From: an uncultured Acidimicrobiales bacterium
GTDB lineage: Bacteria; Actinomycetota; Acidimicrobiia; Acidimicrobiales; VFJN01
Assembly (NCBI GenBank): GCA_963842015.1
Contig: CAWJFG010000020.1
Location: forward strand, 5,424 to 69,423
Direction: 5' to 3'
DNA length: 64,000 nucleotides
A program made the translations under genes and the position numbers. Positions 3,238-53,388 of this stretch are shown here, one piece after another. The notes under the pieces are model-generated. The model was given only the letters and a program-made list of their open reading frames with translations, did no database searches and had not been told where the DNA came from. Within the stretch, counting starts at the first letter, position 1. Every line of letters starts with the position of its first letter.

Positions 3238-3263
3238 GTTGCCGCCCGCGTAGCGTCGCCGCC

Positions 3264-15651: not shown

Positions 15652-15676
15652 TGCCCGCCTCCGCTCGCCCGTGCGT

Positions 15677-15752
15677 CGTGCAACCCCGTCCGCCAGAACG
15701 GGGTTGCACGCCGATGCCATCCTGCGCCTGCCCTGTGGCAATCCCGTGGCAA
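15677..15752 (-). promoter_or_regulatory. 13-bp perfect inverted repeat plus TGCCAC-N5-TGCCAC direct repeat upstream of the STAND gene
   Basis: CGTGCAACCCCGT (15677-15689) / ACGGGGTTGCACG (15698-15710); GTGGCAATCCCGTGGCA (15735-15751). Confidence 0.5.
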
Positions 15753-21452: not shown

Positions 21453-21491
21453 CGAAACTGACAGTGAAAACGACAGCGAGTGTCAGCGAAC
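21453..21491 (+). repeat. End A lacking its first ~12 bp
   Basis: CGAAACTGACAGTGAAAACGACAGCGAGTGTCAGCGAAC. Confidence 0.85.
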
Positions 21492-21713
21492 GGCAGCTCC
21501 GCCCTGTTTCGACCTCGCCCGAGAACTCCCCGCCTCGATCCTCCGAGACAGCCTCGGCATCCACGGCAACACCGCCTCCCGCTGGGTCACCGCCGCGGGC
21601 GGCAGGTGGTCCACCTCCCGCTGCTCCACCGCGTCGCCGGTCGCTAGGGCCCCCGACCCACCTCCCTGGGTCGACTCCCCGGGACGTGCGGATGTAGGAG
21701 CTACCTTCACGTC

Positions 21714-22518: not shown

Positions 22519-22705
22519 GTTCGAAGTCGGCTGCGAGCTGCGCCCAGTCCGGATGGTGTTGCTCTGCGGTCGCGGCCACGTCGAGGGGGGCGGAGTGCCG
22601 GGCCGAGGGACTTCAGAAAGTCCGCCAGGCCGGGAGCCGGGGCTCGTCCGCGTCACGATGATGCCAAGCTGCTCCCATCGCTCTCGCAACCCACTCAACA
22701 ACGCC

Positions 22706-22817
22706 GTCGCTTTCTACTGACAGACCGATGTCGTTTTCACTGACATCCGAGTGTCGCTGCACAACAAGTGCCGCGACACGAAACTGACAGTGAAAACGAC
22801 AGCGAGTGACAGCGAAC
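22706..22817. mobile_element. End B (22706-22763, -) back to back with End A (~22767-22817, +)
   Basis: ..GTCGTTTTCACTGACATCCGAGTGTCGCTGCACA-ACA-AGTGCCGCGACACGAAACTGACAGTGAAAACGAC.. Confidence 0.8.
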
Positions 22818-23190
22818 GGACCTTCGATCACCGACGGGGGAGTGGGGAGCGGCGGCGCTCGCCAATGGTGCGCCCGAGGTCCACGACACGCTCGAGGGGT
22901 CCACCGGCTGGGCCCGGGCGTCAGCGAGGATCGCTGGGTGCTCCGGGAGTTCGATCGTGGTGACCAGGCTGTCGTGCGCGATCTGGCGCTCGAGGGCCCA
23001 CTCGATCCGTGCGGCGCGAGACGAAACCTGCCTGGGAGATACCTCGTCGGTCGCTTGGTCGTGCTCGACCGCGCCGTTCGAGCCGGCGGAGGGCGCCCCC
23101 GCGGCACCCGACGGCCGCGGTGGAGCCGGCATGACGCGGCTCGACCGTCGGCGGCCGCCGCGCTTGTACGAGGCGCCTCGGCGGCGCGAG

Positions 23191-27100: not shown

Positions 27101-27367
27101 ATGGGCAAGCTCGTCTACCTCACCAACGTCTACCTCGACCTCCTGATCGAGGACGAGCACGGCAGCCTCGACTGGAGGGCGCCGTCCGACGAGCTGTTCG
27201 TTCACCCCAGGAACGTCATCCGCCCGCTCGGGACCCACCTCTACGGACGGCGACTCAACGAGACCATGTCCCCGTGGGAGACGTCGCCCGAGCTCGCCGC
27301 CCAGTCCCACCTCACCGCCGAGTTCGCCGGCTTCTGGGCGGCCGCAACAAGGGGGACATCTCGGTGA
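27101..27367 (+). pseudogene. N-terminal fragment of a DHFR/RibD-family gene
   Basis: 'MGKLVY..NVYLDLLIEDEHGSLDW..LYGRRL', truncated. Confidence 0.65.
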
Positions 27368-28146
27368 GACCACTTCGATACTCGATCAACGTCACGCTCG
27401 ACGGCTGCTGCCATCACGAGGCAGGGCTCCCGCCGGATGAGGAGTCGATGCGCTACTGGACCGCGGAGATGGAACGAGCCGATGCCCTGCTGTTCGGCCG
27501 GGTGACCTACGAGATGATGGAGTCGGCGTGGCGGCAGCCGGCCACGGGCACGTGGCCTGACTGGATGGATGAGTGGCAGATCCCGTTCGCCGAGACCATC
27601 GACCGGGCGAAGAAGTACGTCGTGTCGAGCACGCTGAGCGGGGTCGAATGGAATGCCGAGCTGGTGCGAGGCGACTTGGGGCAAGCGGTTCAGCGGCTCA
27701 AGCAGGAGCCAGGCGAGGGCCTGTGGGTGGGTGGCGTGACGCTCCCCCTGGCGTTGGCAGATCTGGGACTGATCGACGAGTACGAGTTCCTTGTGCAGCC
27801 GGTCCTTGCCGGACACGGGCCGACGTTGCTCGCCGGTCTGCGCGAGCGCATCCAGCTCGAGCTCGTGGATCGCCAGGAGTTCCGGTCGGGGGCGGTCGCC
27901 CTGCGATACCGGCCCACGCGAGCTCGGCTTGACGTAACTTGTCCGAGCACGTTGGCCGTTGCCTCGCGACGGAACGACAGCTCTGGTGTGCAGCGACACG
28001 AAACTGACAGTTCCACGTGTCGCTTCACAACGTGGAGTGTGCAGCGACACGAAACCGACAGTGAAAACGACAGCGGGTGTCAGCGAACTATCGTTCGGGA
28101 AGTTGGGCCGGGGCGTTGGCCGGTCGGGTTCGACGTCCAGCTCTGA
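27364..28146 (+). CDS. DHFR/RibD-family protein; homology ends near 27920 and the frame reads through the transposon-end cluster
   Basis: 'YSINVTLDG', 'LLFGRVTYEMM', 'GLIDEYEF..GHGP'. Confidence 0.8.
   Translation: MRPLRYSINVTLDGCCHHEAGLPPDEESMRYWTAEMERADALLFGRVTYEMMESAWRQPATGTWPDWMDEWQIPFAETIDRAKKYVVSSTLSGVEWNAELVRGDLGQAVQRLKQEPGEGLWVGGVTLPLALADLGLIDEYEFLVQPVLAGHGPTLLAGLRERIQLELVDRQEFRSGAVALRYRPTRARLDVTCPSTLAVASRRNDSSGVQRHETDSSTCRFTTWSVQRHETDSENDSGCQRTIVREVGPGRWPVGFDVQL
27987..28088. mobile_element. End cluster: End A tip fused to End B tip (27987-28029), 8-bp spacer, then full End A (28038-28088)
   Basis: TGTGCAGCGACACGAAACTGACAGT|TCCACGTGTCGCTTCACA-ACGTGGAG-TGTGCAGCGACACGAAACCGACAGTGAAAACGAC.. 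Confidence 0.8.
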
Positions 28147-28650: not shown

Positions 28651-28697
28651 TGTGCAGCGACACGAAAGTGACAGCGAAAGCGACACGCTCAGTGAAC
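28651..28697 (+). mobile_element. End A
   Basis: TGTGCAGCGACACGAAAGTGACAGCGAAAGCGACACGCTCAGTGAAC. Confidence 0.8.
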
Positions 28698-28804
28698 GCG
28701 TGTCATTCTGCGGCGACGCCGCGCACGGCGGGTGGCTCCTCGCGCCCACGAGTTCTCCAGGCCGGGCCGTCGTTGCGAGGCGCTCGGGCAAGGCGGCGGT
28801 CAAG

Positions 28805-29458
28805 TCACCATTGCGCGTCGTGCACGAGAATCGCGATGTGCACCCGGTTTGTGACTGCGAGCTTGGTGAGAAGACGCGAGACGTGCGCCTTGACGGTGGC
28901 CTCGCTCATGAACAGGGATGCCGCAACCTCGGCGTTGGATGCGCCGGACCCCACCGCAGTCGCGACCTCCCGTTCCCGGTCTGTGAGCGACGTCAGGCGC
29001 TGGGCAGCGAAGCGACGGCGATCTGTCATTTCGTCGTTGCCGAGGTGAGAGAGAAGTGTGCGGGTGACCGACGGTGAGAGCATCGCTTCTCCTGCAGCCA
29101 CAAGGCGCACTGCATGGACGATCTCCGCGGGCGCGGTGTCTTTCAACAGGAATCCGTCGGCTCCGGCCCGAAGCGCGCTCAGGACATGCTCGTCGGCCTG
29201 GAATGTGGTCAGGACGATCACGTGCGGCGGAGTCGCAAGGCGGCGGAGGGCCGACGTGGCGGCAATGCCGTCCATCCCGGGCATCCGGATGTCCATCAGG
29301 ACGACATCGGGTCGATGCGCCTGCGCGGTTGCGACGGCGTCGGCCCCGTCGGCAGCCTCGCCCACCACCTCCATCTCCTCGGACGACGACAGGATCATCC
29401 GGAGACCGGCACGCACCAACGCGTCGTCGTCGACCAACAGCACCCGGATTTTCACCAC
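28805..29458 (-). CDS. NarL/LuxR-family response regulator
   Basis: 'LLVDDDALVR', 'VVLMDIRMP', 'LTDREREV..TVKAHVSRLL'. Confidence 0.92.
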   Translation of the reverse strand: MVKIRVLLVDDDALVRAGLRMILSSSEEMEVVGEAADGADAVATAQAHRPDVVLMDIRMPGMDGIAATSALRRLATPPHVIVLTTFQADEHVLSALRAGADGFLLKDTAPAEIVHAVRLVAAGEAMLSPSVTRTLLSHLGNDEMTDRRRFAAQRLTSLTDREREVATAVGSGASNAEVAASLFMSEATVKAHVSRLLTKLAVTNRVHIAILVHDAQW

Positions 29459-30681
29459 GGCAGGTCGGCCTCGACGACGAAGTCACCGGAAGCGTCTGGT
29501 CCGTGCACCAGGACGCCATTGGCCAAGGTCACTCGCTCCTGCAGACCAAGGAGGCCCGTGCCGGAACCCGGCGGAGCCGGACGGTCGTGGGCGCCCACTG
29601 CGGGTGGGTTTCGAACCCATACGTGCAGGCCGCGGTTCGGCGCCCCCGCCACCCGAACCTGGGCGAGGGTGCCGCGAGCGTGCTTGCTGATGTTGGTCAG
29701 CGCTTCCTGCACGATGCGGTATGCGTCGCGACCCAAGGCGCCGGGTGCGGCAGCTGCACCGTCCACCTGCATCTCGAAGTCGATCTTTGCGCCGGAGCGG
29801 CGAGTCTCCTCCACCAAGCGTGGAATGTCAGCCAGCGTCGGTTGTGGCACCGTCGACGGCCGCTCCTGCCCCGGCTCCTCCCGCAGCACGCCGATCACGT
29901 CCCGCAGCTCTTCCAGCGCTTGGTGGGCCGTCAACCGCAACAGCGCTGCGCTCTCCCGCACCTGGGCGGGAGGCAGGTCGAGTGCGACCTCGAGCGCCCC
30001 GGCGTGCAGCGCCACCAGGGAGATGCGGTGGGCGAGCACGTCGTGCATCTCCCGTGCGATGCGCGTCCGCTCGGCCAGGCGCGCACGTTCGACGCGGACG
30101 AGCTGATCAGCCTCGGCCCGTTGGGCACGGTCGCGCAGGGTGGAGAGGAGCTGACGCCGGGCGCGGACGAACATGCCCCATGCGGTTGCGGCGGCGGCAA
30201 GCGCCGCCGTCGGCAGCATCACCGACCAGGTATTGGTCCGCCCGAGCCAGATCGAGCACACCACTGCGGACGGAACGAACAGCGCGGCGACGAGCAGGGC
30301 GGGCCGGACGTGGCGGTGGACAGCCAGCGAGGACAGTGCGAGCAGGCCGGCCACCGTGCCAAACGTCGAGAATGCGCCCAACAGGACGCAAACCAGCGCC
30401 ACACCGAGCGGCCAGCGCCGCCGCCACCACAGTGAGATGCAGCAAAGGGCTCCGAACGCGGCGTCGGTGGCCACCCGCCCCGAGGCCATCCGATTGGCGG
30501 CGTCATCCACGGTGACGCTCAGGATGAGAGCGCCGAGAGCGGCGGCGATGACGAAGGCACCGGCGTCGACGGACCAATCGCGCGCAGTCCTGGGCGCCAC
30601 CTTGTCGGGATGAGCCGAGTCGCTCGGTGCCAGCATCGCCGTGGGGCCGGTCTGAGCCCACCATCTGCGAAGCCAGGACAT
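29452..30681 (-). CDS. Membrane sensor histidine kinase (HisKA_3 type)
   Basis: 'ERTRIAREMHDVLAH', 'YRIVQEALTN', 'GTGLLGLQER'. Confidence 0.9.
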   Translation of the reverse strand: MSWLRRWWAQTGPTAMLAPSDSAHPDKVAPRTARDWSVDAGAFVIAAALGALILSVTVDDAANRMASGRVATDAAFGALCCISLWWRRRWPLGVALVCVLLGAFSTFGTVAGLLALSSLAVHRHVRPALLVAALFVPSAVVCSIWLGRTNTWSVMLPTAALAAAATAWGMFVRARRQLLSTLRDRAQRAEADQLVRVERARLAERTRIAREMHDVLAHRISLVALHAGALEVALDLPPAQVRESAALLRLTAHQALEELRDVIGVLREEPGQERPSTVPQPTLADIPRLVEETRRSGAKIDFEMQVDGAAAAPGALGRDAYRIVQEALTNISKHARGTLAQVRVAGAPNRGLHVWVRNPPAVGAHDRPAPPGSGTGLLGLQERVTLANGVLVHGPDASGDFVVEADLPW

Positions 30682-30842
30682 AGTTCGAGCGTACGGCTCA
30701 GGGCCCCCGTGCAACATCGACGAAAGTCGACACTGCAACCAACGAAAGGCGCGAAGTCGGAAGTGGCCGGGCGTCCCTTCGGACATCGGATCGTGGCCGT
30801 CCGCCCGATGCGGCGGCGCACCGGGCGGTTCAGGGTGGCCAC

Positions 30843-31760
30843 ATGATCACGACAACCGCTCTCACCAAGAGCTACAAGAAGGTTCCGGTCGTCCGCGACG
30901 TCTCGTTGCGCTGCGAAGCCGGGACCATCACCGGTTTCCTCGGGGCCAACGGCGCCGGGAAGTCCACCACGCTGAAGATGATCGTCGGGCTGGTGCGACC
31001 CGATCGCGGTACGGCGACCATCGACGGCCGACCGTTCGTCGAGCTGCCCAACCCGACGCGCGTGGTCGGGACGCTGCTCGACGCGTCTGCGATGCATCCC
31101 GGGCGTAGTGGCCGGGCGACGCTCACGATCGCAGCGCGGCTGGCAGCCGTTCACACGAGGCGGGTCGAGCACATGTTGGACCTCGTCGGGATTGCCGATG
31201 CGGCGGAGAAGCGGGTCGGGACCTACTCACTTGGCATGCGCCAGCGCCTCGGCGTCGCCCAGGCGCTCGTTGGTGATCCGGCTGCGTTGATCCTCGATGA
31301 ACCGGCGAACGGGCTCGATCCCGAGGGCATCGCCTGGATGCGAACGCTCCTGCGCGACTTCGCCGACCGTGGCGGCACGGTGCTGTTGTCGAGTCACCTG
31401 CTCCCCGAGGTGCAGGCCACCGCTGATCATCTCGTCGTCATCTCCGACGGTGCCGTGGTGGCTGCCGGTCGGCTGGACGATCTGCTTGCCAGCTCCACGA
31501 TCCTCGTGCGCAGCCCCGACCCCGGTGCACTTGCCGCGGCGCTCCAGGTTGCGCGGATCGACTACGTCGCCGGGCCGGGAGATGCGCTCACCGTGGACGT
31601 CTCCGGAGGTCGGGTCACGACCGAGGTGCTGGCGGGGGTCGCCCGCGACCACCAGGTGCTGCTCACCGAGTTGCGTCAGTCCGAGACAAACGGGCTGGAA
31701 CAGCTGTTCTTCTCTCTCACCGCCGCCAAGGCGGCTCCGCCCCAGGAGGCTGCAGCATGA
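30843..31760 (+). CDS. ABC transporter ATP-binding protein
   Basis: 'GANGAGKST', 'YSLGMRQR', 'LILDEP'. Confidence 0.92.
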   Translation: MITTTALTKSYKKVPVVRDVSLRCEAGTITGFLGANGAGKSTTLKMIVGLVRPDRGTATIDGRPFVELPNPTRVVGTLLDASAMHPGRSGRATLTIAARLAAVHTRRVEHMLDLVGIADAAEKRVGTYSLGMRQRLGVAQALVGDPAALILDEPANGLDPEGIAWMRTLLRDFADRGGTVLLSSHLLPEVQATADHLVVISDGAVVAAGRLDDLLASSTILVRSPDPGALAAALQVARIDYVAGPGDALTVDVSGGRVTTEVLAGVARDHQVLLTELRQSETNGLEQLFFSLTAAKAAPPQEAAA

Positions 31761-32536
31761 CCACGTCACTCTCCCCCCGAACCCTCGGCATCGACGCGGC
31801 ACCGTCGGCCCCAGGACCTATCCCGTTCTCACGGCTTGTCCGGGTCGAGTGGGCCAAGGCCACCGATACCCGCGCTGCCCGCTGGCTCCTCGCTCTCTTA
31901 GCCCTGTCGACCGCTGGGATGATGCTGGTGCCGGTCCTCGCCCCAACGACCTTCGATCAGACCTACGCGAGCTACCTCCGCGTTGCCGCTCTCGGGCTGA
32001 CGATCCTCCTGCCCGTGGTGGCGATCCTGATGCTCACCGGCGAATGGAGCCAACGCAGCGTCATGACCACGTTCACCCAGGAACCGCGACGCATCCGAGT
32101 CCTGAACGCCAAGCTGGCGGTGTCGATGGTGCTGGGTGGTGGCGCTGCAGTCTTCGGCGGAGTGGTCACCGCCGCCGGCCTCGGGCTGGCGGCGGCCTCG
32201 GGCCGCGCCCTGGAGGCAAACCTGACCGTCGGCGCCATCACCGGCTATCTGCTCTTCGTGCTCCTCAATGTCCTCGCCGGCGTCGCGCTCGGGGCGCTGC
32301 TGCAGAGCTCGGCGACTGCCATCGCCGCCTCCTTCGCTCTCCCCGCCGCCTTTGCTGTACTCGGCACGACATCGACGCTGGTGTCGGACTGGATCGACAT
32401 GTCCACAACCTGGAACTGGGTGCTCGAGAACGACTGGGCTGGTCACGTGCCGCAGATCTCGTTCTCGATCGTCTTCTGGGTGGCGGTCCCGCTCGCCGCC
32501 GGTGTCGTTCGGACGATACGTCGCGACGTCGGGTAG
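31757..32536 (+). CDS. ABC-2 type permease
   Basis: About six TM helices, 'GEWSQRS..TF..EPRR', C-terminal 'RRDV'. Confidence 0.85.
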   Translation: MTTSLSPRTLGIDAAPSAPGPIPFSRLVRVEWAKATDTRAARWLLALLALSTAGMMLVPVLAPTTFDQTYASYLRVAALGLTILLPVVAILMLTGEWSQRSVMTTFTQEPRRIRVLNAKLAVSMVLGGGAAVFGGVVTAAGLGLAAASGRALEANLTVGAITGYLLFVLLNVLAGVALGALLQSSATAIAASFALPAAFAVLGTTSTLVSDWIDMSTTWNWVLENDWAGHVPQISFSIVFWVAVPLAAGVVRTIRRDVG

Positions 32537-32782
32537 TTGGCTCGGCCGGGCCTGGTTGATCAAGATGCCTCCGTCGCCTCTGAACCCGGCTCGTTCTTTA
32601 GCGCAGTGAATGCGCTTCCGCACGGAGCTCAACGAAACGAATCCCGCGCCGCCCTTCTCGCCTGGAGCGGCGACGTGATCATCGGGTTCGTGTCACGGAG
32701 TTGTCACGGCGACGGTCTCGCCTTTGGCCAACTCGCGCATACGAATGGTGGGTGCCGGCGAAGTGTGGTCTGACCTGCGGTA

Positions 32783-32810
32783 GTGGCGGGGGTAGGAGTT
32801 GAACCTACGA
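32783..32810 (-). other. Possible 3' fragment of a tRNA (T-arm plus acceptor), att-like scar
   Basis: Minus strand TCGTAGGTTCAACTCCTACCCCCGCCAC forms stem GTAGG/CCTAC around a TTCAACT loop; no 5' half seen. Confidence 0.5.
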
Positions 32811-32992
32811 GTAGCGCCACTGACGCCGAGCAGACATCTGACCCTCTGCTCGGGAGTAGATGCGCGGCGCAGCTACTCCGATTGGTCCCCAACTCGCGCG
32901 GTCTACCGTTTCTCAGTGGGATCGCTAGCAGCGGGCTAAGAGAGTACGCCCAGGCGGGGAGCGGGGGTTCGCGCGCGTAACGACGCTGCCAT

Positions 32993-33162
32993 CTGCTGAC
33001 ATCGCTTGTCGCAATTCACTGACACCGCTGTCGTTTTCCACTGACAGAACCGTGTCGTTTTCACTGACATCCACGTGTCGCTGCACAACAGCTGTGCAGC
33101 GACACGAAACTGACAGTGAAAACGACCGCGACTGTCAGTGGAAAAGCGACAGCGACTGTCAG
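32993..33162. mobile_element. Best-preserved junction: End B (32993-33087, four repeats), 5-bp spacer ACAGC, End A (33093-33162, three repeats)
   Basis: ..CCACGTGTCGCTGCACA-ACAGC-TGTGCAGCGACACGAAAC..; repeats spaced 22-24 bp. Confidence 0.88.
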
Positions 33163-33167
33163 AGTCG

Positions 33168-33365
33168 GACGGTCGCATTCTGGCGACCGGCACGCTGGCG
33201 ACCGGTGACCCAGGGCAGGGCCGCATCCTCCGCGTGGCCGTTGACCGCCGGCACCGCCGCCAGGGCCTTGGCCGCCTCGTCGTCGCCGAGCTCGTGGGCG
33301 CGCTCGCGGGAAACGAGGGACTCGCCGACGGGGTGTTGGCCATTCAAGTTAGGAGGCTTCGATGA
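33168..33365 (+). pseudogene. GNAT acetyltransferase internal fragment
   Basis: 'GRILRVAVDRRHRRQGLGRLVV' directly after End A. Confidence 0.55.
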
Positions 33366-33792
33366 TCCGCTTGAGCTGGTTCAGATTGTCCCGCATGCCC
33401 CGCTTGAAGAGCTGCGTCGCTAGCTCATCGAGGTGACCCATCGGTCCCGGGAGGCCGGCGCTGCTGATTGACCCGTCGAGGGTGAGACGCGTTCCCTGGC
33501 TGGTCGGCTCGAGCGCGTAGCGATACCGGAACGGGGTTGGCCCACTGAGGCTCTCCAACGTGACGAGCCGATCGGGCTGGTGATCGGTGAGCTCGACGTC
33601 GTTGTGGACTTGACCGCCTGGCAGCGAACGCGTGACGTCGTAGCGCGCGCCGGGGCCGCTTGGCCCGTTCGTCGTCCTGGCGACATGGTCGACTGCGTCG
33701 TACCACAGCGGCATGTTGTGGGGTTCGGCGACGAAGGCGAACACCTCGTCGGGGGGACGGCTGATGTCGACGGTGGTGTGAAATGTGCCCAT
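33349..33792 (-). CDS. SRPBCC / polyketide cyclase-like protein
   Basis: 'VDISRPPDEVFAFVAEPHNMPLW', 'NLNQLKRIIE'. Confidence 0.85.
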   Translation of the reverse strand: MGTFHTTVDISRPPDEVFAFVAEPHNMPLWYDAVDHVARTTNGPSGPGARYDVTRSLPGGQVHNDVELTDHQPDRLVTLESLSGPTPFRYRYALEPTSQGTRLTLDGSISSAGLPGPMGHLDELATQLFKRGMRDNLNQLKRIIEAS

Positions 33793-33831
33793 GCTCGTGT
33801 CTCCTTTGTGAACGTGTTTGGTTTGTGGAGT

Positions 33832-34698
33832 TCACGGGGCGGCTGGTTGGGCGACCGCGTCGAGAAGCCCGGCGGCCGCGGGGTCGTGGGCGGCGAGGAT
33901 CTGGAGTCCGGGGTTGTTCGCCCGCAGCTCGAGCACCTTGTCGCGTGTCTTGCGAAGCTGGTTTCGGCTGCCGACGCCTCCGGTTCGGCCGCGTTCGAAG
34001 GCGTGGATGTCGTAGGTCAGATCGCCCACGAGCAAGAGGGGCACCGTTTCACGGCGGCGAACCAGCATGGACATCGAGCCGTGGGTGTGTCCCGGGGTGG
34101 GGAGCAGGACGAGCGAGCCGTCGCCGAACAGGTCACGTCCGGTCGTGAAGGGCGCCAGCGATGGGTCCTCGAGTGGGGTGAGCTCCACGGGCGACCATCG
34201 CAGACCTGGCACGTCGATGTGGTCGCGGAGGAAGCCTCGTGCTTCGGCCATCGGCCGGTGGAGGGACCGCCATTCCTCGGCGGACACCAAGAGGTCTGCG
34301 TCGGGGATCTCGCGTACGCCGCCGATGTGGTCTTGGTGGAGATGGGAGATCACCGCGGTGGCCACGTCCTGGGGGTGGTAGCCGACCCGCGCCAGGCCGG
34401 CGGTGAGGGTCTCGTCGTCGCTGATGTGGAATCGGGCGAGGCGGCGGTAGATCAGCCCGTTGGGGCCGTCGGGGAAGTAGCGGGGGTCGGTGACCGAGGC
34501 TCGGTCCTGGCCGGTGTCGAAAAGCACGATCCCGTCGGTGTGCTCGATGACATAGACGTTGATCGGGCGGCCGGTCAGCCACCGTCGCGACGTGAGGATC
34601 CACCAGTACATCGGTGAGCGTCCCCGGTGGGCGTGCTCGGGGTGGATGTCGACGGTGCCAGTGCTGAACCTGGCGACGCGCGTGATGGGGGTTGGCAT
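33832..34698 (-). CDS. Metallo-beta-lactamase-fold hydrolase, N-acyl-homoserine lactonase family
   Basis: 'FDTG', 'SHLHQDHIGG', 'TPGHTHG', 'GD', 'AHD'. Confidence 0.85.
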   Translation of the reverse strand: MPTPITRVARFSTGTVDIHPEHAHRGRSPMYWWILTSRRWLTGRPINVYVIEHTDGIVLFDTGQDRASVTDPRYFPDGPNGLIYRRLARFHISDDETLTAGLARVGYHPQDVATAVISHLHQDHIGGVREIPDADLLVSAEEWRSLHRPMAEARGFLRDHIDVPGLRWSPVELTPLEDPSLAPFTTGRDLFGDGSLVLLPTPGHTHGSMSMLVRRRETVPLLLVGDLTYDIHAFERGRTGGVGSRNQLRKTRDKVLELRANNPGLQILAAHDPAAAGLLDAVAQPAAP

Positions 34699-34717
34699 GG
34701 GGTCTCCTCGCCAGTGT

Positions 34718-34759
34718 TAGCGTATTGGATACGCTAGCGATAGCGTATGAGGTACGCAA
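34718..34759. promoter_or_regulatory. Two palindromic TetR operators
   Basis: TAGCGTA-N5-TACGCTA and TAGCGTA-N5-TACGCAA between divergent genes. Confidence 0.7.
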
Positions 34760-34777
34760 CCGAGATCGGGAGGCGAG

Positions 34778-35464
34778 ATGCCCAACAAGCGTCAGGCCAC
34801 GACCGCGGCGAGCCGACGAGCGAGCCGGGTGCCCCGCAACACGCTGTCGCGCGACCGCATCGTCGACGCCGCCCTGGCGTTGCTCGACGCGGAGGGATTC
34901 GACGCGGTCACGATGCCGTCGCTCGCCAAGCGCCTGGGCGTGGGAACCATGTCGCTATACCGGCACGTGGCGGACAAGGACGACCTCATCAACGCGGTCG
35001 GCGAGCGGGTGCTGAGCGGCGTGGCCGTGCCCGACGGAGACCCGCTCGACTGGGAAGGCCGCGTGGTCGGCTACCTGCGAGCCCTGCGGGACGCGGCAAT
35101 CGCCCATCCCGCGCTGTCACGGATCCTCGCCCAACGAGGGCTCACGGTAGGGCCCGTCTTCGAGCAACTCGAGGCCGTCCACGCCATCCTGCGGGCCGCC
35201 GGCTTCTCCGACCTCGACGCCGTCCGAACCTTCTACACGCTGCTCAGCTACGTCTTCGGCTTCATTGCCTGGGAGCTGCCCCGCGTTCACCAACAGCCCG
35301 CCGCGGCCTACACAGCAGCCTGGAACGACGCCCTCGATCGCCTCGACCCCTCCGCCTACCCAAACCTCCACGCCCTTCGTCCACAACTCACCACCGTCGC
35401 ATCGCCGGAGCAGTTTGAGTACGGACTCAGGCACCTCGTCCGCTCGCTACGCGCCCAGGACTGA
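34778..35464 (+). CDS. TetR-family regulator with TetR_C domain
   Basis: 'LSRDRIVDAAL..LGVGTMSLYRHVADK', 'FEYGL'. Confidence 0.9.
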   Translation: MPNKRQATTAASRRASRVPRNTLSRDRIVDAALALLDAEGFDAVTMPSLAKRLGVGTMSLYRHVADKDDLINAVGERVLSGVAVPDGDPLDWEGRVVGYLRALRDAAIAHPALSRILAQRGLTVGPVFEQLEAVHAILRAAGFSDLDAVRTFYTLLSYVFGFIAWELPRVHQQPAAAYTAAWNDALDRLDPSAYPNLHALRPQLTTVASPEQFEYGLRHLVRSLRAQD

Positions 35465-35811
35465 TCGGTGCCGCCTGGCTGTGGTGGAGAGGCTGGGTCC
35501 GAGCGGCTTCCGGGTGAGCACACGACCACGGCCCGGTCGAACGTGTAGGTCCCGGCCACGAACTCGGCGATTGGGTCGCTCGGGGGCAGGAGGGTGCGCA
35601 CGCCGTCGGGCGCCTCGTGCATCACGTCGGCGAACGGCCCGAACGGACGAGGACCAGCGGCCGACGACGACGCGATCTCCCGAGGTCGTGCCGAAGCCGG
35701 CGATCTCGCCACGGAAGCGGAGGGAGCGTCGAGCGGCCACGGTCGAGGGCTACCCGTCCGCCGGGGTCCCGCAACGTCGTGGCGGCCGCCGGCGCCCTAA
35801 CCTCCGGTCCG

Positions 35812-37149
35812 GTGACCTCGCTGTTCGAGCCGTACGTGCAGCTCGTCGACGTCACGGCGACGGCCGCCCTGGTCGCCTGGGGCGGGTTCGTCCTCGAGGA
35901 GCACGGCGGCTCGTGGCGGGCCCGGCGCACGGGTGAGACGTTCGGGGTCCGCTCGGTCCCGATCGGTCGGGCCGCGGTCGAGGTGCTCGACGGCGACGGG
36001 GCCGTCGTGGCCCGGGAGGCCACCGACGACGCCAACCACGTGTGGGTCGAGGGCCTCCGACCGTCGACCACGTACCGCTACCGCGTCCTTGTCGACGGCA
36101 AGCGGTGGGGCGAGGCCGACCGGCACGACTGGGCGCCCGGCGACCTCGCGGCGGCCACCCGCGCCCTCGACCTGCGCCTGCGCACCCACGCCGCGGCCGA
36201 CGACCCCGACCCGGTCACCTTCCTGGCCGTGGGCGACACCGGCGTGGGCATCGCTTCCGGCGACGACGGGATCCGCCAGCTGGCGGTGGCTCGCACCATG
36301 CAGCGCCTGGCCGACGCCTTCGACGTGCGCTTCGTGGTCACGCTGGGCGACACGATCTACCACGGGCCCGGCGGACGCACCGACCACAGCGGCGCCCACG
36401 ACGACGACTGGTGGCTCACCTACTTCCAGCCGTACCGCTACCTGATCGACCACCTGGCCTTCTACCCGACGGCCGGCAACCACGACGGGTCCGACGAGGA
36501 GGCCGCCGACGACCGCGGCCAGCTCGAGGACAACCTCTACCTGACCACCCGGTTCGCCCCCCGGGCCGAGGCCGGCCGCGCCTCGCTCGGGCCGGGGTTG
36601 TTCTACCGCCTGCAGGTGGGCGCGCTCCTCGAGCTGCTGTGCGTCGACACGACGTGGGGCGCCGAGCGAGGCGAGCACTGGTTCGACGATCCCGACCACA
36701 GCGCCTGGCTCGACGACGCGCTCGCGTCGGGCGGGGACGTCACGTGGCGGGTGCCGTTCTGCCACCATCCCGCCTGGTCGGCCGGCCCCCACCACGAGAG
36801 CATGCAGGCGCAGATCGAGCGGCTCGTGCCGCGCTACCGGCGGGGCGGTGCCCGCCTCGTGCTGCACGGGCACGAGCACAACTTCCAGCACGGGTGCCTC
36901 GACGACCTCGACTACGTCGTCTCGGGGGCGGGCGGAAAGGTCGATACCCGACCCCCGCCGCGCACCGACGAGGCGGGCACGCTGTCCTGGGCGGCCGCAC
37001 CGCATTGCCTGCTCGTGCAGGTCGCCCCCGAGGCGCTGACGATCGTGCCCTTCGCCGCCACACCTCCGGGCGGACGGCCGGTGCCGCTGGTGCGCCACCG
37101 CCCCGACGGCTCGCCGACCGACGACCCGATCGTGATCCGGCGACATTGA
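35812..37149 (+). CDS. Metallophosphoesterase (purple acid phosphatase-like)
   Basis: 'GDTG', 'GDTIY', 'GNHD', 'HH', 'GHEH'. Confidence 0.85.
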   Translation: MTSLFEPYVQLVDVTATAALVAWGGFVLEEHGGSWRARRTGETFGVRSVPIGRAAVEVLDGDGAVVAREATDDANHVWVEGLRPSTTYRYRVLVDGKRWGEADRHDWAPGDLAAATRALDLRLRTHAAADDPDPVTFLAVGDTGVGIASGDDGIRQLAVARTMQRLADAFDVRFVVTLGDTIYHGPGGRTDHSGAHDDDWWLTYFQPYRYLIDHLAFYPTAGNHDGSDEEAADDRGQLEDNLYLTTRFAPRAEAGRASLGPGLFYRLQVGALLELLCVDTTWGAERGEHWFDDPDHSAWLDDALASGGDVTWRVPFCHHPAWSAGPHHESMQAQIERLVPRYRRGGARLVLHGHEHNFQHGCLDDLDYVVSGAGGKVDTRPPPRTDEAGTLSWAAAPHCLLVQVAPEALTIVPFAATPPGGRPVPLVRHRPDGSPTDDPIVIRRH

Positions 37150-37288
37150 CGGACGAGCAGGGCTGCGACGCGTTCCCACCGTGTCGAGCGGGTATGCCAG
37201 GGCGGTGACAGCGAGTGGCTCCCGGACGTCGGTGACCCAGGCGGCGCGACTCGAGAGGCGCCAGGCCGCGCTCGGGCGGCGCGTGTCC

Positions 37289-38149
37289 ATGTCGCCGCCG
37301 GGGCCGGCCCCCGATCGCTTGCGGGTGGCCTCGTGGAACCTGAACTCGCTCCGAGTGAGGGTCGGCGCCGTCGACCGGTTCCTCGAGCGGGCCTGTCCGG
37401 ACGTGCTCTGCCTTCAGGAGACCAAGACCGGGCAGCTGTCCGAGCCGGCGGTCTCGATGTTCGAGCGGCACGGCTACACCGCGGTTCACGTGGGCGGGCG
37501 GTCGTACAACGGCGTGGCGGTGGTGGCGCGCCACCCCATCGCTGACGTCCAGGCGTCCGGTGCGCTCGGTGACGAGCACCTCGACAGCGAGCCGCGGATC
37601 ATCACGTGCCTGGTCGACGCTCCGGTGCCGGTGCGGGTGGCGTCGGTGTACGTCCCACACGGTCGGGCCGTCGACCACTGGCACTACGACTTCAAGCTGG
37701 GCTTCCTCGACGCCCTGGCCGAGCGGGTCCGGCAGTGGCTGCTCGACGATGCGCACCTGCTCGTCGCCGGCGACGTCAACGTCGCGGCGTCGGACAGCGA
37801 CGTGTTCCACCCGGATGCCTTCACCGGTTCCGTGTACGTGACGCCGCGAGTGCGGGATGCGCTCACCCGGATGCTCGATGCCGGCCTCGTCGATGTCGAC
37901 GTCGCCCGGTGGGGCCCGCAGGCCGGGCGGTTCACGTGGTGGGACCTCGGCATCGGGTACGCGCGCGACCTGGGCATGCGTCTCGACGTCATTGCGGCCG
38001 ATCGGGCGCTGGCGGCCCGCCTGGACACGACGTGGATCGACCACGTCGAGCGATCGCTGCCCCGGCCGTCCGACCACGCGGCGCTGGTTGCCGACTTCAA
38101 TCTCGCCGAGGGCCAAACCGACGGCGCAGCGACACAAGACCGACGGTGA
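37289..38149 (+). CDS. xth: Exodeoxyribonuclease III family AP endonuclease
   Basis: 'SWNLNS', 'LQETK', 'YNGVA', 'GDVN', 'FTWWD', 'SDHA'. Confidence 0.85.
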   Translation: MSPPGPAPDRLRVASWNLNSLRVRVGAVDRFLERACPDVLCLQETKTGQLSEPAVSMFERHGYTAVHVGGRSYNGVAVVARHPIADVQASGALGDEHLDSEPRIITCLVDAPVPVRVASVYVPHGRAVDHWHYDFKLGFLDALAERVRQWLLDDAHLLVAGDVNVAASDSDVFHPDAFTGSVYVTPRVRDALTRMLDAGLVDVDVARWGPQAGRFTWWDLGIGYARDLGMRLDVIAADRALAARLDTTWIDHVERSLPRPSDHAALVADFNLAEGQTDGAATQDRR

Positions 38150-38172
38150 ACGACAGTGGGATGTCAGCGAAC
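38123..38172 (+). repeat. Degenerate End A overlapping the xth 3' end
   Basis: GGCGCAGCGACACAAGACCGACGGTGAACGACAGTGGGATGTCAGCGAAC. Confidence 0.65.
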
Positions 38173-38268
38173 GTCGGTCATCGTCGCGGCGGCCGCGATG
38201 GGCAATCTCGGCACCCCGCTGGCTGATCTCCGAACGCGACGTGTCGGGCGACGTGACACCCTTCGCCC

Positions 38269-38535
38269 ATGTCCTTGGCCACGAGCGAGCACGAGCGGCA
38301 GGAGTTCCTCGCCGCTGTCCACGTCGGCGTCATCTCGATCGAGCGAGCCGACGGCCCGCCGCTCACCGTCCCGATCTGGTACGGCTACGAGCCCGGGGGG
38401 CTCGTGTGGATCATCACCGCCGCCGAATCCCTCAAGGGAAGGCTGTTGAACGCCGCCCGGCGCTTCAGCCTCTGCGCGCAGACGGAGGAGCCGCCCTTCT
38501 ACAAGTACGTCAGCGTCGAGGGACCGATCGTCGAC
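38269..38535 (+). pseudogene. PPOX-like gene truncated at transposon ends
   Basis: 'ERQEFLA..HVGVISI..PLTVPIWY..YKYVSVEGP' runs into an End B remnant at 38536. Confidence 0.75.
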
Positions 38536-38598
38536 TCGTTTTCCACTGTGTGCAGCGACACGAAAACGACAGTGAAAACGACACGGGTGTCAGCGAAC
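38536..38598. mobile_element. End B remnant (38536-38548) abutting End A (38549-38598)
   Basis: TCGTTTTCCACTG|TGTGCAGCGACACGAAAACGACAGTGAAAACGACACGGGTGTCAGCGAAC. Confidence 0.8.
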
Positions 38599-39021
38599 CG
38601 GCGTTCGTGAGCACCTCGATGATGGGGGAGCGCGGGTCCGCTGCGCGAATTCCTCGTCGCACTCCGCCCTACGACGACGACGATCAGTGTCTGCCCGGGT
38701 CCCAGAACGGCACGTGAGGGACACTGGCGGATGATGACCGAAGCCCGGTGGGCGCTCGGACGCCGCGTCGTCGTCACCTGCGTTAGCCGGGTCGTGGAGC
38801 ACGTTCGCGGTCGCTCGCCGGGTCATCGAGTTCTGGGGTTCGTAGGAGGTTCGACCTCGTGGTCGGCTCGGGCATCGTGTTCGAGGACCGGGGCGTCCAC
38901 GTGCTGCGGGGCGTGCCCGAGGACTGGCAGCGCTACAACCCAGCCATCCAGCATTCCCATCGCACCGCGGCGTGCGATCTGATGAGTACCGTCCCGTTCC
39001 TCTACGACAGGGGGAGAGGAC

Positions 39022-40646: not shown

Positions 40647-40697
40647 TGTGCTCCGACACGAAACTGACAGTGAAAACGACAGGGAGTGTCAGCGAAC
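40647..40697 (+). mobile_element. End A
   Basis: TGTGCTCCGACACGAAACTGACAGTGAAAACGACAGGGAGTGTCAGCGAAC. Confidence 0.85.
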
Positions 40698-40814
40698 AGT
40701 CGTTCGGTCGCTGCGCAGGAAATGGGGGAGAGGCCCTCGCGCTGGTCGCATCGAGGCTGGCGGACTCAGCCGGCGGTAGGTGACAGCGTGCGTCGCGACC
40801 GCGAGGCTTCTGGC

Positions 40815-43235: not shown

Positions 43236-43374
43236 CGTCGCTGCTCTCCTTCTGCTTAACCACGCCCCGTCGTCACCATCGCCGGGAGGTCGGTGGCCCC
43301 CGTCAGCGGGCAGATCTCGTTGGCCACCCACACCCGCCTACCCCGGCCACACCCCGCTCACATCCGAAGCGCCC

Positions 43375-43441
43375 GTTTCTACCGACAGTGCCCTGTCGTT
43401 TTCACTAACAATCGATGTCGCTGCACAGCCCTGTGCAGCGA
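43375..43441. mobile_element. End B (to 43427), 4-bp spacer GCCC, 10-bp End A tip (43432-43441)
   Basis: ..TGTCGTTTTCACTAACAATCGATGTCGCTGCACA-GCCC-TGTGCAGCGA. Confidence 0.8.
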
Positions 43442-46653: not shown

Positions 46654-46703
46654 TGTGCAGCGACAGGAAACTGACAGTGAAACGACAGCGACTGTCAGCG
46701 AAC
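46654..46703 (+). mobile_element. End A
   Basis: TGTGCAGCGACAGGAAACTGACAGTGAAACGACAGCGACTGTCAGCGAAC. Confidence 0.85.
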
Positions 46704-46821
46704 GTCGTTCGATGACCGATGGGGGAGAGGGCCCAGTTGCACTGCCCAGGCCTGGTCATCAGCGTCCTGGTCGAGAAGCAGGTCGAGATGCGCCGCGTTT
46801 CCGTGTGCGCCGACTGGTACC

Positions 46822-46906
46822 GGTCTTCATCCGGGAGTCGATCGACCAGCCCACGATCCGGTTCGACCAGGCGTCCTTGATGGCGCACAGGATAGAGCTT
46901 TCCGTC
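46822..46906 (-). mobile_element. IS3-family transposase internal fragment
   Basis: 'GKLY/LCAIKDAWSNRIVGWSIDSRMK' from the DDE core. Confidence 0.65.
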
Positions 46907-46996
46907 GGCGGCGACGTTCCCGACCAGCAACCTGGGCTGGCACGAGCGATCCGGTGGGCTCACCACAGAGCTGGCGGCGAACTTCTTGCCGCTCTC

Positions 46997-47083
46997 GACG
47001 AGGCCGAGGTCGCCTACTGGGGATGTTGCCCCGCGTGCCGGTCCGAGGCGCTGACCGAGGCCGGGGCCACGACCGGCGCCTGA
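46997..47083 (+). pseudogene. FurA-like C-terminal fragment
   Basis: 'DEAEVAYWGCCPAC'. Confidence 0.6.
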
Positions 47084-47990
47084 CGGATCGCCTCCGGGTC
47101 GAGGTGGCGCAGCTTGTCCGGGTTCACGACCGTGTGCACCGCCGCGATGTGACCGTCGACGATGTCGAGCTCCATGACGGCGACGACGTTCCCGTCGGCA
47201 TCGGTGATGGTCGCGCCGGGCTGGCCGTTGACCTGCGCCTGGTGGAGGGACAGGCCGGCGTACGCACCGCCGGTCCGCATGCCCGTGACGAGCATCCGGG
47301 CGACCCTGGTCCGGCCCTGGACGGGGCGGGCGATGGCCCGCACGACGCCTCCGCCGTCACCGTGGAAGACGACGTCGTCTGCCAGCAGCTCTTCGAGCTC
47401 GCCCAGGTCGCCGCCGCGGACCGCAGCCAGGAAGCGGCTGGCCAGCTCGTCGCGGCTGTTCCGGTGACGCCTCGAACCGGGGACGGCCCTCCTCCACGTG
47501 CCGTCGGCCCCGTGCCACGAGCTGGCGGGTGTTGTCCTCGCTCGTGCCGATGATGCCGGCAATGTCGGCGTACGGGTAGGCGAAGACCTCGCGGAGCAGG
47601 AACGCAGCCCGCTGCTCGGGCGTAGAGGTTCTCGAGCAGCACCAGGAACGCCAACGACAGCGAGTCCGCCACCTCGGCGGCGTCGGCGGGGTCGATGACG
47701 CGGTCGTCGACCAGCGGCTCGGGCAGCCACTCGCCGACGTAGCTTCTCACGCGCGCACCCTTGCCGAGCGCAGCTGGTCGATGCAGAGCCGGGTGACGAC
47801 GGTGGACACGTAGGCACGCGGCGATTCGATCTGCTCGTCGCGCTCGCGGGCGAGGTGGAAGCGCAGCAGCGCCTCCTGCACGATGTCCTCGGCATCGCTC
47901 GACACTGCCGAGCATCCGGTAGGCGACCGCGAACGCCCGGGGCCGCAGCTCCTCCAGGGTCGGCATCCCGGGCGTCGGCGTTCCCGGCAT
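47014..47990 (-). CDS. ECF41 (SigJ-like) sigma factor, copy 3; several frameshifts
   Basis: 'AYRMLGSV', 'YVGEWLPEP', 'HGDGGG', 'VNPDKLRHL'. Confidence 0.85.
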
Positions 47991-47993
47991 CGG

Positions 47994-48959
47994 TCAGGCC
48001 AGCCCCTTGGCGAGACCCTGCCGCCAGCTCGGATACCGGAGGTCCCAGCCGAGCTCGCGCTTGGCCTTGGCGTTCGAGCGCCCCGTGCACATCCGTCATC
48101 ATGATGGTCGCCATCTCGCCGGCCACGAGGCGCCCGAGCCACCGCGGGATGCGCCGCGGGGGCTTGGCGTCGAGCGCGCTCGCCAGCGTCGGCAGCCAGT
48201 CCCGCACGGTGGCGGGCTCGTCGTCGACGATGTAGTAGATGCCTCGGGCCGCCGCGCTCGACCGCAATGGCCGTCGCGGCCGCGGCGTCCTCGATGTGGA
48301 TGTGCGACCACACGCCTCCGCCGTCGCCGATGATCGGGAACTGCCGCTTGCGGACGGGGCCGGCCATCTCGGCGTCGGGGTCGAGGCTGATCCCGGTGCC
48401 CGGGCCGTAGAACCCGCCGTAGCGCAGCGCGAGGCCCTCGCCCCAGTCGATCGAGGTCACCGCCTTCTCCAGGTGGAGCAGCGCTTGCACCACCGGGCGC
48501 AGCGCTCCGGGGGGATCGGGATACAGGGGCTCGTCCTCGGTCATCACCGGCGGGCCTGTGGGGGCGTAGCGGAAGGCGCCGAAGCTCTGCGCAACGAACC
48601 GCCGGGCCCCGACGGCCGCGGCCGGCGGCGAGCAGGTAGTCGGTCGCCTCGGTTCGCAGGCGGTTGGTCGTGATCGCCATCGGGGAGCGATCTGGGTGGC
48701 GCGCATCGCGGAGGCCCATCCTCCCGGAGAGCGCCGTGAGCTGGTGCACGATCACCTCCGGCTCGGCTTCGCCCACGACCCGGGCCACGGCGTCGGGGTC
48801 GAGGGCGTCGGCCACGACCGGTCGCGCGCCCAGCGTTCGTAGCATGTCCTGCTTGGCGGGGGTCCTGGTCATCGCGACAACCTCGTGGCCGGCGGCGACG
48901 AGCTCCGGCACCAACTGTACGCCCAGGGCACCGGAGGCTCCGGCGACGAAAACCTTCAT
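47994..48959 (-). CDS. NAD-dependent epimerase/dehydratase, copy 3; frameshifted
   Basis: 'MKVFVAGASGALGVQLVP'; close paralogue of 1498-2455. Confidence 0.85.
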
Positions 48960-48991
48960 GTCAGCTCCTCCTCGTTTCGGTCACCTACTGA

Positions 48992-49018
48992 GACGAGATG
49001 ACCGGCCCCCCTGTGACA
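48992..49018 (-). promoter_or_regulatory. ECF41-type promoter TGTCACA-N16-CGTC
   Basis: Exact consensus upstream of the epimerase. Confidence 0.75.
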
Positions 49019-49167
49019 GTCCCCGGGGGCCGGGATCGTGCCCCGCGGTGTGGTGTAGGTCGACGTGGTGATCGTCGAGGTTGGTACGCGAGCTCCTCTG
49101 CCGCCGCCGGCGACAACACCGACCGGGTCCGGTCCGAAGCGGCGTTCGCGAAGCTGAGCGGCTCCTG

Positions 49168-49254
49168 GTGTCGTTTTCCACTGACAGAACCGTGTCGTTT
49201 CCACTGACATCCACGTGTCGCTGCACACGATGAAAACGACACGACGTGTCAGCG
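49168..49254. mobile_element. End B (49168-49227) followed by an End A inner remnant (49231-49254); last copies in the window
   Basis: GTGTCGTTTTCCACTGACAGAACCGTGTCGTTTCCACTGACATCCACGTGTCGCTGCACA, near-identical to 33029-33087. Confidence 0.88.
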
Positions 49255-49579
49255 CGTGCGTCCGCACGCAACGCCCAGAATCCTCGTTCTGTTAAGTAAC
49301 GGAGACAGGCGGCCCAAGACGAGGCCGCGCTCCCGTTTGGCCCACCACCCGGTGCTTCCCCGCCACCCCGGCTCGCCCCTCGAATCGCACTGGCGTCGGC
49401 GACGACGCGCTCTGGGGACAAGCACAGATCCGACATGACGGCCAGCCATCACGAGGTCGGCGGTGCTGCCGGCCGTTGCGTCGACCGTGCACCCGCCCCT
49501 GCCCATCGCCGATGGTTACGTCACAGTGACGCAACCATCGGCGATGCGAGGCCCCTGGACCCGTGGCGCGCGGAACGGG

Positions 49580-52871: not shown

Positions 52872-52905
52872 GGCCGCCAGTCTGGCGGGTCGGATCGGCT
52901 CGGCC

Positions 52906-53308: not shown

Positions 53309-53388
53309 CGGAACGTAGCGATGCTCGGGGCACGACCGGTGGATCCGGTGACGTTGCGGGGTGCCCCGCCCGCGCGAGACTGCCGCAG

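Follow-up and report, generated by a model that had tools for sequence, protein, structure and literature searches.

A one-way array of transposon-type ends and accessory genes beside one chromosomal motif in an uncultured Acidimicrobiales bacterium

A 64-kb stretch from the assembly of an uncultured soil Acidimicrobiales bacterium (GenBank GCA_963842015.1, contig CAWJFG010000020.1, positions 5,424 to 69,423; here called the window and numbered from its first letter) contains, at 32993-33162, two inverted, repeat-bearing ends that abut head to head, which raises the question of what sort of element leaves such a seam. The junction proved to be one joint in a 46-kb stack of similar ends, and the view of the first-pass annotation, which had read it as the trace of a single event, is to be revised in this respect. 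On the evidence below we lean slightly towards repeated, oriented and site-directed insertion of non-autonomous cargo elements of the Tn7/Tn5053 type at a dedicated site. We infer the family membership from the ends, as none of the genomes searched yielded the transposase.

The junction has the anatomy that the first-pass annotation had described, namely two inverted ends of four and three units with ACAGC between them. Its parts and the gene modules on both sides are as follows.

32993-33087, minus strand: B-type end (right-end-like), TGTGCAGCGACACG and four TGTCAG-led 17-bp units at 22-23 bp spacing (nhmmer, B model, E 5e-24)
33088-33092: 5-bp spacer ACAGC between both termini
33093-33162, plus strand: A-type end (left-end-like), TGTGCAGCGACACG, AAAC and three units, its inner part atypical and B-like
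28651-33087: module closed by this B-end, with response regulator, histidine kinase and ABC transporter genes
33093-38548: module opened by this A-end, with SRPBCC, metallo-beta-lactamase-fold, TetR, two phosphoesterase and F420-PPOX genes

Both ends share a perfect 14-bp terminus, TGTGCAGCGACACG, of which the window holds seven exact copies, and both space their units by 22-24 bp. On the minus strand from 33087, the terminus is followed by TGGA and by TGTCAG at offsets 19, 42, 64 and 87 (periods 23, 22 and 23); on the plus strand from 33093, it is followed by AAAC and by TGACAG, TGTCAG and TGTCAG at offsets 19, 41 and 65. Every TGTCAG opens a 17-bp imperfect palindrome, TGTCAGTGAAAACGACA, and the intergenic units have the dyad-symmetric form TGTCR-N7-YGACA, with a phase of two helical turns. 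In the window this motif is about ten times commoner than expected: TGTCAGTGRAAA with up to two mismatches has 21 matches against 1.88 expected (none of 100 shuffles reached 21). The junction arms are 85% complementary across 34 nt and share another perfect 14-nt stretch; the 170 nt form a near-perfect palindrome that folds, as single-stranded DNA, into one hairpin of -70.3 kcal/mol, compared with -27.95 +/- 3.37 kcal/mol for shuffled sequences (z -12.6; 0 of 200 shuffles equally good). A promoter or ribosome-binding-site cassette was ruled out because the A-ends have no fixed orientation to adjoining genes, and so was a tRNA/tmRNA attachment site suspected at 32780-32990, since ARAGORN found no tRNA or tmRNA gene in the window. 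Rfam returned no family at the junction, just chance matches of miRNA hairpins to the palindrome.

Two types of end recur across 3193-49227, A always on the plus strand and B always on the minus strand. The A type (...CGAAACTGACAGTGAAAACGACA...TGTCAGCGAACGnnCGTTCG) is about 59-70 nt long, with about 59 nt conserved among 52 distinct copies, comprising the terminus and two units; the copy at 33093, with its three units, departs from this consensus. The B type (...(T/C)(G/A)GATGTCAGTGAAAACGACA...) carries three or four units over about 70-95 nt in 22 distinct copies, and the multi-unit subterminal repeats are asymmetric between the two ends, as in Tn7-like elements. Profiles of both types, run with nhmmer against the whole 6.2-Mb assembly (E<=0.01), gave 14 matches for the A model and 11 for the B model, all of them within 3193-49227 of the window and none on the other 44 contigs; BLAST and motif search alone recovered one decayed joint on contig C31. 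The 12 A copies in the window lie at 3193, 21453, 22768, 27987 (fragment), 28038, 28651, 33093, 38126, 38549, 40647, 46654 and 49231 (fragment), and the B copies at 22763, 33087, 43427 and 49227, with fragments at 28029 and 38548. B meets A at 22763/22767 (ACA), 28029/28038 (8 bp), 33087/33093 (ACAGC) and 43427/43432 (GCCC), and also at 38548/38549, where the B arm is truncated. The features of the array outside the central junction are listed here.

3193-3240, plus strand: decayed A-end, presumably the oldest recognisable one, directly after a gene stop codon (E 1.1e-5)
21453-21498, plus strand: A-end without its terminal 12 nt (E 2.6e-11)
22674-22828: second head-to-head junction, with a B-end at 22674-22763 (minus), the spacer ACA (or ACAAG) and an A-end at 22767-22828 (plus) with the mutated terminus AGTGCC
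27987-28029: 43-bp empty mini-element, 24-26 nt of A terminus joined to 17-19 nt of B terminus
28038-28098, plus strand: full A-end, following the mini-element after an 8-bp spacer (whole junction 27987-28098)
28651-28703, plus strand: variant A-end (E 2.8e-12)
38126-38178, plus strand: decayed A-end (E 3.6e-8)
38535-38608: junction with truncated B side, in which an inner B unit remnant (...CGTTTTCCACTG) abuts a full A-end at 38549-38608 (plus)
40647-40708, plus strand: A-end with terminus TGTGCTCC, opening a DinB/methyltransferase/phosphoesterase module that closes at 43427
43370-43441: junction of a B-end at 43370-43427 (minus), the 4-bp spacer GCCC and a 10-nt A-terminus stub (43432-43441)
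46654-49227: complete 2.57-kb element, from an A-end at 46654-46712 (plus) to a B-end at 49157-49227 (minus)
49231-49255, plus strand: weak A-end fragment with inner units only (E 0.012), between the last B-end and the docking motif described below

Beyond the last B-end, the array is anchored to a conserved chromosomal sequence next to a gene that relatives share.

49272-49295, minus strand: docking motif ("block 2"), TTAACAGAACGAGGATTCTGGGCG, 44 nt from the last B terminus
52140-52931, minus strand: class-I glutamine amidotransferase gene

A conserved 24-nt block, TTGACAGAACG(T/A)GGATTCTGGGCG, precedes the first B-end in genomes G008, G018 and G021, in each case just downstream of the amidotransferase gene. 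In relatives, the 3' end of this gene lies 180-350 nt upstream of the motif, whereas the window has 2.8 kb of extra DNA between them. The motif is present in a single copy in the genome and is kept across the genus with or without ends. Its distance to the B terminus is 41, 47, 43, 44, 39, 44 and 39 nt (the last at a decayed end) at seven loci in five genomes (G008, G018, G021, G017 and G016), and 44 nt in the window and 40 nt at locus L075; the insertions at all nine loci thus lie 39-47 nt from the attachment sequence with the same polarity, as expected of a Tn7-like element, and the DNA between motif and terminus is not conserved. In eight genomes without ends (G010, G012, G013, G014, G015, G022, G026 and G027), unrelated DNA comes after the motif; at two of the loci the contig stops just 88 and 106 nt past the block. 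In G024 the block is present and the first end lies about 1.4 kb away. Judging by these comparisons, the docking motif belongs natively to the chromosome, because it is kept in genomes without ends, and the elements would enter B-end first at much the same distance from it each time, because the B-ends stand at a near-constant distance.

At eight loci with the motif Rfam found no family. At six loci (L060, L032, L087, L059, L028 and L243) an inverted copy of its 3' half, GGATTCTGGGCG, lies 9-20 nt downstream and pairs with it, with matching changes on both sides (GGATTATAGGCG / CGCCCATAATCC), which suggests a hairpin or a dyad binding site. A separate 19-bp palindrome, TT(A/G)CGTCAC(N)GTGACG(T/G)AA, flanks glutamine amidotransferase and ABC transporter genes genus-wide; it lies at about 53295-53313 in the window and on both sides of the amidotransferase gene in relatives (L227, L230, L231 and others), and is probably the operator of a local regulator. 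Further along, a glycine riboswitch at 60670-60775 (plus strand; Rfam RF00504, 54.7 bits) precedes the glycine dehydrogenase gene gcvP.

The same locus was occupied differently in close relatives. Sequences matching the junction were found in nine of 27 same-genus genomes and in none of 33 genomes from other genera of the family and order. The arrays of G002 and G008 have the same flanking genes as the window (nSTAND/WD40 on one side; ABC transporter, AlkZ, WYL regulator and gcvP on the other) around cargo unlike that of the window. End polarity is uniform there as well, in G002 with four A-ends and one B-end and in G008, where the block is inverted, with six and two; A-ends therefore exceed B-ends in all three arrays, by 12 to 6 in the window. 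An exact-pattern scan of one genome per species yielded 33 loci, of which 25 have real ends and eight are chance matches without units; the 25 belong to metagenome-assembled genomes (MAGs) of Acidimicrobiales/Acidimicrobiia, save two short contigs labelled Jiangellaceae and Nocardioidaceae. Spread to another class, which the Jiangellaceae contig (L075) might have indicated, was rejected, since the contig carries the same amidotransferase-motif-B-end locus, 81-85% identical to that of G021, and it is probably mis-binned. Of the 29 loci that an exact-match scan of metagenomes returned, about 25 are real. Two more genomes with real A-ends (G322 and G421) were all that a class-wide sample of 400 contributed, most of its two-mismatch matches being chance or a conserved gene, and a plasmid collection and viral contigs contained no match to the ends.

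Between the ends lie modules of unrelated accessory genes in both orientations. They encode PadR, an APH-type kinase, an ECF sigma factor, DoxX, a cyclase and GNAT; hydroxyacid dehydrogenase, ArsR and RibD_C; the response regulator, histidine kinase and ABC transporter set; SRPBCC, a metallo-beta-lactamase-fold protein, TetR and two phosphoesterases; and F420-PPOX, another GNAT, DinB and a methyltransferase. The complete element at 46654-49227 holds an NmrA-like gene and a frameshifted ECF sigma/SnoaL gene, the latter a pseudogene spread over three reading frames (46954-48959, minus strand).

Some further features touch the ends or the cargo. The RibD_C-domain open reading frame (ORF) at 27274-28146 (plus strand) crosses the ends at 27987-28098, and its final 60 or so codons are transposon-end sequence. 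A G-run motif, GGGGGAG(N)GGGG, stands about 15-40 nt past the conserved 59 nt of many A-ends (22830-22850, 38620-38640, 40725-40745, 46720-46740 and many related loci) and may serve as a ribosome-binding site or a site for a host factor, or else belong to the end itself. Within the older part of the array, 10627-15741 (minus strand) encodes a 1,704-aa BTAD-nSTAND1-WD40 protein, a truncated homologue of which flanks the G002 array. In four soil or rhizosphere runs, Logan contig depth at 27336-28002 and 28670-29336 is 10-100 times that of adjoining modules, which indicates that these segments are common to many other organisms or elements in those samples.

Evidence of how an element enters DNA comes from G018, where a 1.64-kb element (PadR plus a membrane protein) is nested in an unrelated 220-bp repeat. 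Its flanks read CCAAG|TGTG...CACA|CCAAG in both copies, which, being 99.6% identical, represent a single insertion event; the nested element also occurs in at least four other MAGs, one of which (L066) reads CCAAG/CGAAG. Elsewhere, spacers at joints are 2, 3, 4, 4, 5, 5, 5, 6, 8 and 13 bp long, with the sequences ACAGC (L117), GCAGC, GCTGGG, GCAA, GCCC, ACA and AC at joints other than the central one. A 5-bp duplication with a few base pairs of positional wobble would give most of them. The composite of repeat and nested element is 1,864 bp long and stands twice on G018 contig C16 (L045:1864-3727 and L046:1839-3700; 99.6% identity). Its outer repeat, of about 220 bp, has imperfect inverted ends of its own (GGCAGATATGGGCG... 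/ ...CGCATATTGCC) and seems itself to be mobile, the nested arrangement being found in several MAGs and metagenome contigs.

Which known systems have ends of this kind? The first-pass annotation suggested that type V-K CRISPR-associated transposons (CASTs) begin similarly, and the primers printed in the Methods of PMC9527255 confirm it, as both ShCAST ends start tgtacagtgac, identical at 9 of 11 positions to TGTGCAGCGAC of the array ends. Passages of the same source report for ShCAST 5-bp duplications, five and three TnsB sites at its two ends, and unidirectional integration tens of bp from the recognised target. The spacing from the docking motif is likewise reminiscent of these guide-directed relatives, for which a passage of PMC8649781 gives integration tens of bp from the recognised sequence, at 50-60 bp from the protospacer. 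Different from ShCAST, the array lies 39-47 nt from the end of its motif, and cas12k, tnsB, tnsC, tniQ and a CRISPR array were not seen with it.

The likeness to Tn7 extends further. In the passages of Benler et al. (PMC8649781) concerned with ends, Tn7 has three left and four right TnsB sites, arrays of such sites are a unifying feature of Tn7-like elements, and adjacent insertions leave multiple ends; the same source mentions an uncharacterised clade of Tn7-like transposons dominated by Actinobacteria. Tn7 inserts at a set distance from its att gene, and TGT/ACA termini are essential in Tn7-like elements, as stated in parts of PMC11014353, so the set distance from the motif follows what that source describes for a Tn7-type attachment site. 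Similar to Tn7 and Tn7-like islands at att sites (Tn7 at glmS; Tn6022/AbaR in comM), the elements of the array have terminal 5'-TGT...ACA-3' with the perfect 14-bp inverted terminus at both ends, three versus four phased sites, a 5-bp duplication as far as the one nested insertion shows, one orientation at a set distance with the four-site end proximal, and adjacent insertions with several left and right ends in one island. The B-end would fit the role of a right-end analogue. Because these features of ShCAST and Tn7 ends match, the end anatomy fits an enzyme of the TnsB/TniA type. Differences from Tn7 are that tnsABC/tniQ genes were not found in any element or end-bearing genome, that about a dozen cargo-only units are stacked, far above the few tandem cases described, and that the docking motif is intergenic rather than within an essential gene, in an uncultured soil Acidimicrobiales host. 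Mobile insertion cassettes and other non-autonomous cargo transposons (MICs, TIMEs) have a comparable arrangement, in which transposon ends surround passenger genes, a transposase is lacking and mobilisation is presumed to occur in trans; those elements are dispersed, whereas the array elements are stacked at one site in one orientation.

Several results weigh against repeated insertion by an enzyme of this group. Pfam searches for transposase and recombinase domains found none in 50 ORFs across the window; the 88 ORFs of the G002 and G008 arrays include no transposase, and the 61 ORFs beside metagenome and genome copies are cargo, with no end-linked transposase, 25 metagenome copies included. 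An element-encoded TnsB/TniA, AAA+ regulator or TniQ/TnsD selector was likewise not found in the window, in the related arrays or beside the metagenome copies. The rve genes of five end-bearing genomes lie elsewhere, without the ends of the array, and Mu-transpos_C occurs in three of 61 relatives, none of them end-bearing. Target immunity of the Tn7 type should oppose stacking, according to a passage of PMC11014353. The evidence for 5-bp duplication comes from one insertion event, and four further elements, complete or mini, were checked and show no clean duplication (46654-49227, flanked by CGTAG / CGATG; 27987-28029; a 285-bp element in G008; a 68-bp element in G024). Clean duplications would be expected to be lacking in arrays if neighbours share or overwrite targets, but their absence leaves the 5-bp rule thinly supported. 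The spacer ACAGC is repeated at metagenome locus L117 between unrelated cargo. Two A-ends directly follow a gene stop codon without a B-end, one at 3193 and the other seen after 35486 in short Logan contigs from two independent soil studies. The latter stands right after position 35486, downstream of the TetR gene, at a point where the window has 205 nt of other sequence and no A-end, which indicates a strain polymorphism. In G008 an intact A-end, and different DNA beyond it, come after the orthologue (91% identical) of the gene before 3193, and the window gene after the A-end at 3193 sits elsewhere in G008 without an A-end. Homology between genomes also breaks at the inner edge of the A-end, not at the terminus. 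Together with the stop-codon A-ends, these breaks are unlike what simple cut-and-paste units would predict.

The missing transposase is itself weak evidence, because MAGs often lose plasmids and multi-copy elements. Other candidates for the enzyme were set aside one by one. An IS256 element in L105, with inverted repeats of its own, inserted separately, and an IS630 beside one end copy lies outside the element. The rve loci of the source genome (G000) have other inverted repeats or none, and an 823-aa rve ORF in G016 is a fusion artefact with a glycosyltransferase frame. TniB matches came only from a conserved housekeeping AAA protein of 850-900 aa, and TniQ was found in 0 of 41 in a search whose control likewise matched nowhere and which therefore carries little weight. 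The Tn3 transposase (PF01526) is absent from all five end-bearing genomes, and the termini in the array begin TGTG; elements of the Tn3 family have inverted repeats of 38 bp with GGGG at their start. Also discarded were TniA-like genes that lie on short contigs of G043 and G038, as their upstream regions do not have the ends of the array. These genes, from other families of the order, are multi-copy, encode rve plus Mu-transpos_C in 460-630 aa and follow a Cys-rich ORF (L246:9733-11616, L248:425-1822, L247 and L249); they represent Tn5053/Tn7-type elements of Acidimicrobiia.

Much of this negative evidence would suit an array built by conservative site-specific recombination, in which the B-spacer-A palindrome of about 170 bp is the recombination site, with inverted 14-bp cores around a short crossover, arm-type sites and maybe an attC-like hairpin, and circular cassettes enter and leave through a recombinase whose gene lies elsewhere. 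Integron arrays and CALINs (attC clusters without an integrase) are one-way and consist of small unrelated genes with hairpin-forming imperfect palindromes between modules. The window resembles them in its single one-way locus of uniform polarity, its motley small accessory genes, its foldable palindromes (about -70 kcal/mol at the junction) and its content, which varies between close relatives; the identical ACAGC at an unrelated joint, the two A-ends tied to the 3' end of the upstream gene and the lack of a transposase also speak for such a mechanism. However, a fixed crossover region would not allow spacers of 2, 3, 4, 5, 6, 8 and 13 bp, and a near-fixed distance of 39-47 nt from the motif across non-conserved DNA is unlike a crossover inside a conserved core. 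The sites of the array are also conserved in sequence rather than in structure only, the modules are multi-gene with genes in both directions, and a site consists of two transposon-type ends with TGT/ACA termini that match a TnsB substrate at 9 of 11 positions. Many lone A-ends and complete A...B units stand away from partner sites. No recombinase or integrase, IntI included, was found beside the arrays of the window, G002 and G008, and the tyrosine recombinases of the five genomes are distant from them, the nearest Xer-like genes being about 80 kb off. We therefore regard site-specific recombination as unlikely, while giving it more credit than the two alternatives that remain.

One of these is the integrated junction of a copy-out/paste-in or IS21-type element, which the first-pass annotation had offered beside tandem insertion. 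A reactive junction of the IS21 family consists of abutted ends a few bp apart. The joints might then be circle junctions, (IS)2 tandems or insertions targeted to a resident inverted repeat, and an enzyme of the IstA/IstB or IS3/IS481 type would move the cargo modules as mobile insertion cassettes. The spacers, which are short and variable (2-6 bp at most joints), agree with this, as do the multi-repeat terminal inverted repeats of IS21 (L1, L2; R1, R2) with catalytic CA termini that a passage of PMC11208146 describes. Yet none of 30 IS481 loci among the 61 relatives has such ends, none of 25 IstB/IS21 loci of relatives has TGT ends with such units, G000 contains no IstB, and no IstA/IstB is linked to the array. 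Joints here connect different cargo modules, and a reactive junction leaves unexplained both the fixed distance and polarity to a chromosomal motif and the co-orientation of a dozen different modules. We keep this explanation as an improbable one. It is very hard to credit, finally, that nothing here is mobile and that a host protein regulates or organises a variable region by binding the 17-bp palindromic units as its operators or iterons. Dyad symmetry, phasing at two helical turns, intergenic position and the lack of a mobility enzyme would suit such sites, but the breaks between non-homologous cargo of different genomes fall exactly at them, their orientation to adjoining genes is not fixed, an inverted pair of them encloses the 1.64-kb insert that lies within another repeat and has a 5-bp duplication, and the ends are absent from 18 of 27 congeners that retain the flanking genes.

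Repeated site-directed insertion is the explanation that we prefer. The tandem insertion at one target proposed in the first-pass annotation gains from the co-orientation of the ends, the nine loci with the motif at 39-47 nt and the one 5-bp duplication; its idea of TnsB-type ends holds for their transposon-type anatomy and lacks its enzyme, since no transposase is linked to the ends in the window, relatives or metagenome copies. The central junction would then be the seam between two adjoining non-autonomous cargo transposons of one family, and its phased 17-bp sites may, by analogy, be of the kind bound as multimers by DDE transposases of the Tn7/Tn5053/Mu group. Elements would insert successively in the same orientation, B-end first, about 39-47 bp from the 24-nt motif, each newcomer displacing older elements outward and bringing its A-end against the previous B-end. 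Exact re-use of the target would leave a 5-bp spacer, as at 33088-33092, and a wobble of a few bp would leave 2-8 bp. The transposase would be supplied in trans by an element absent from the assemblies. Palindromes of 140 nt may be unstable, and many joints would lose one arm, usually B; the excess of A-ends could reflect such arm loss or selection against an immunity-conferring proximal end.

On this reading, the ends define a minimal substrate (one of 95 nt and one of 62 nt) and the motif a 24-nt target, and both may be used to fish the missing targeted transposase from soil metagenomes and to test it; site-directed integration systems of this kind are of practical interest. A keyword search of open-access text found no description of such an array in Acidimicrobiia. 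We suggest, tentatively and as a speculation that may well prove wrong, that soil Acidimicrobiales keep a gene-capture platform, integron-like but built by targeted transposition at one docking motif, and served by a trans-acting machine on an unbinned plasmid or phage, possibly RNA-guided (CAST-like) or of a new kind, which would tolerate stacking by lacking or evading target immunity. The stacking raises the question of how target immunity is bypassed. If repeated insertion is the right reading, cassettes bounded by transposon ends can stack into a one-way array of 46 kb at one chromosomal address, and this actinobacterial lineage would possess an integron-like store of swappable accessory genes such as regulators, detoxifying enzymes and transporters.

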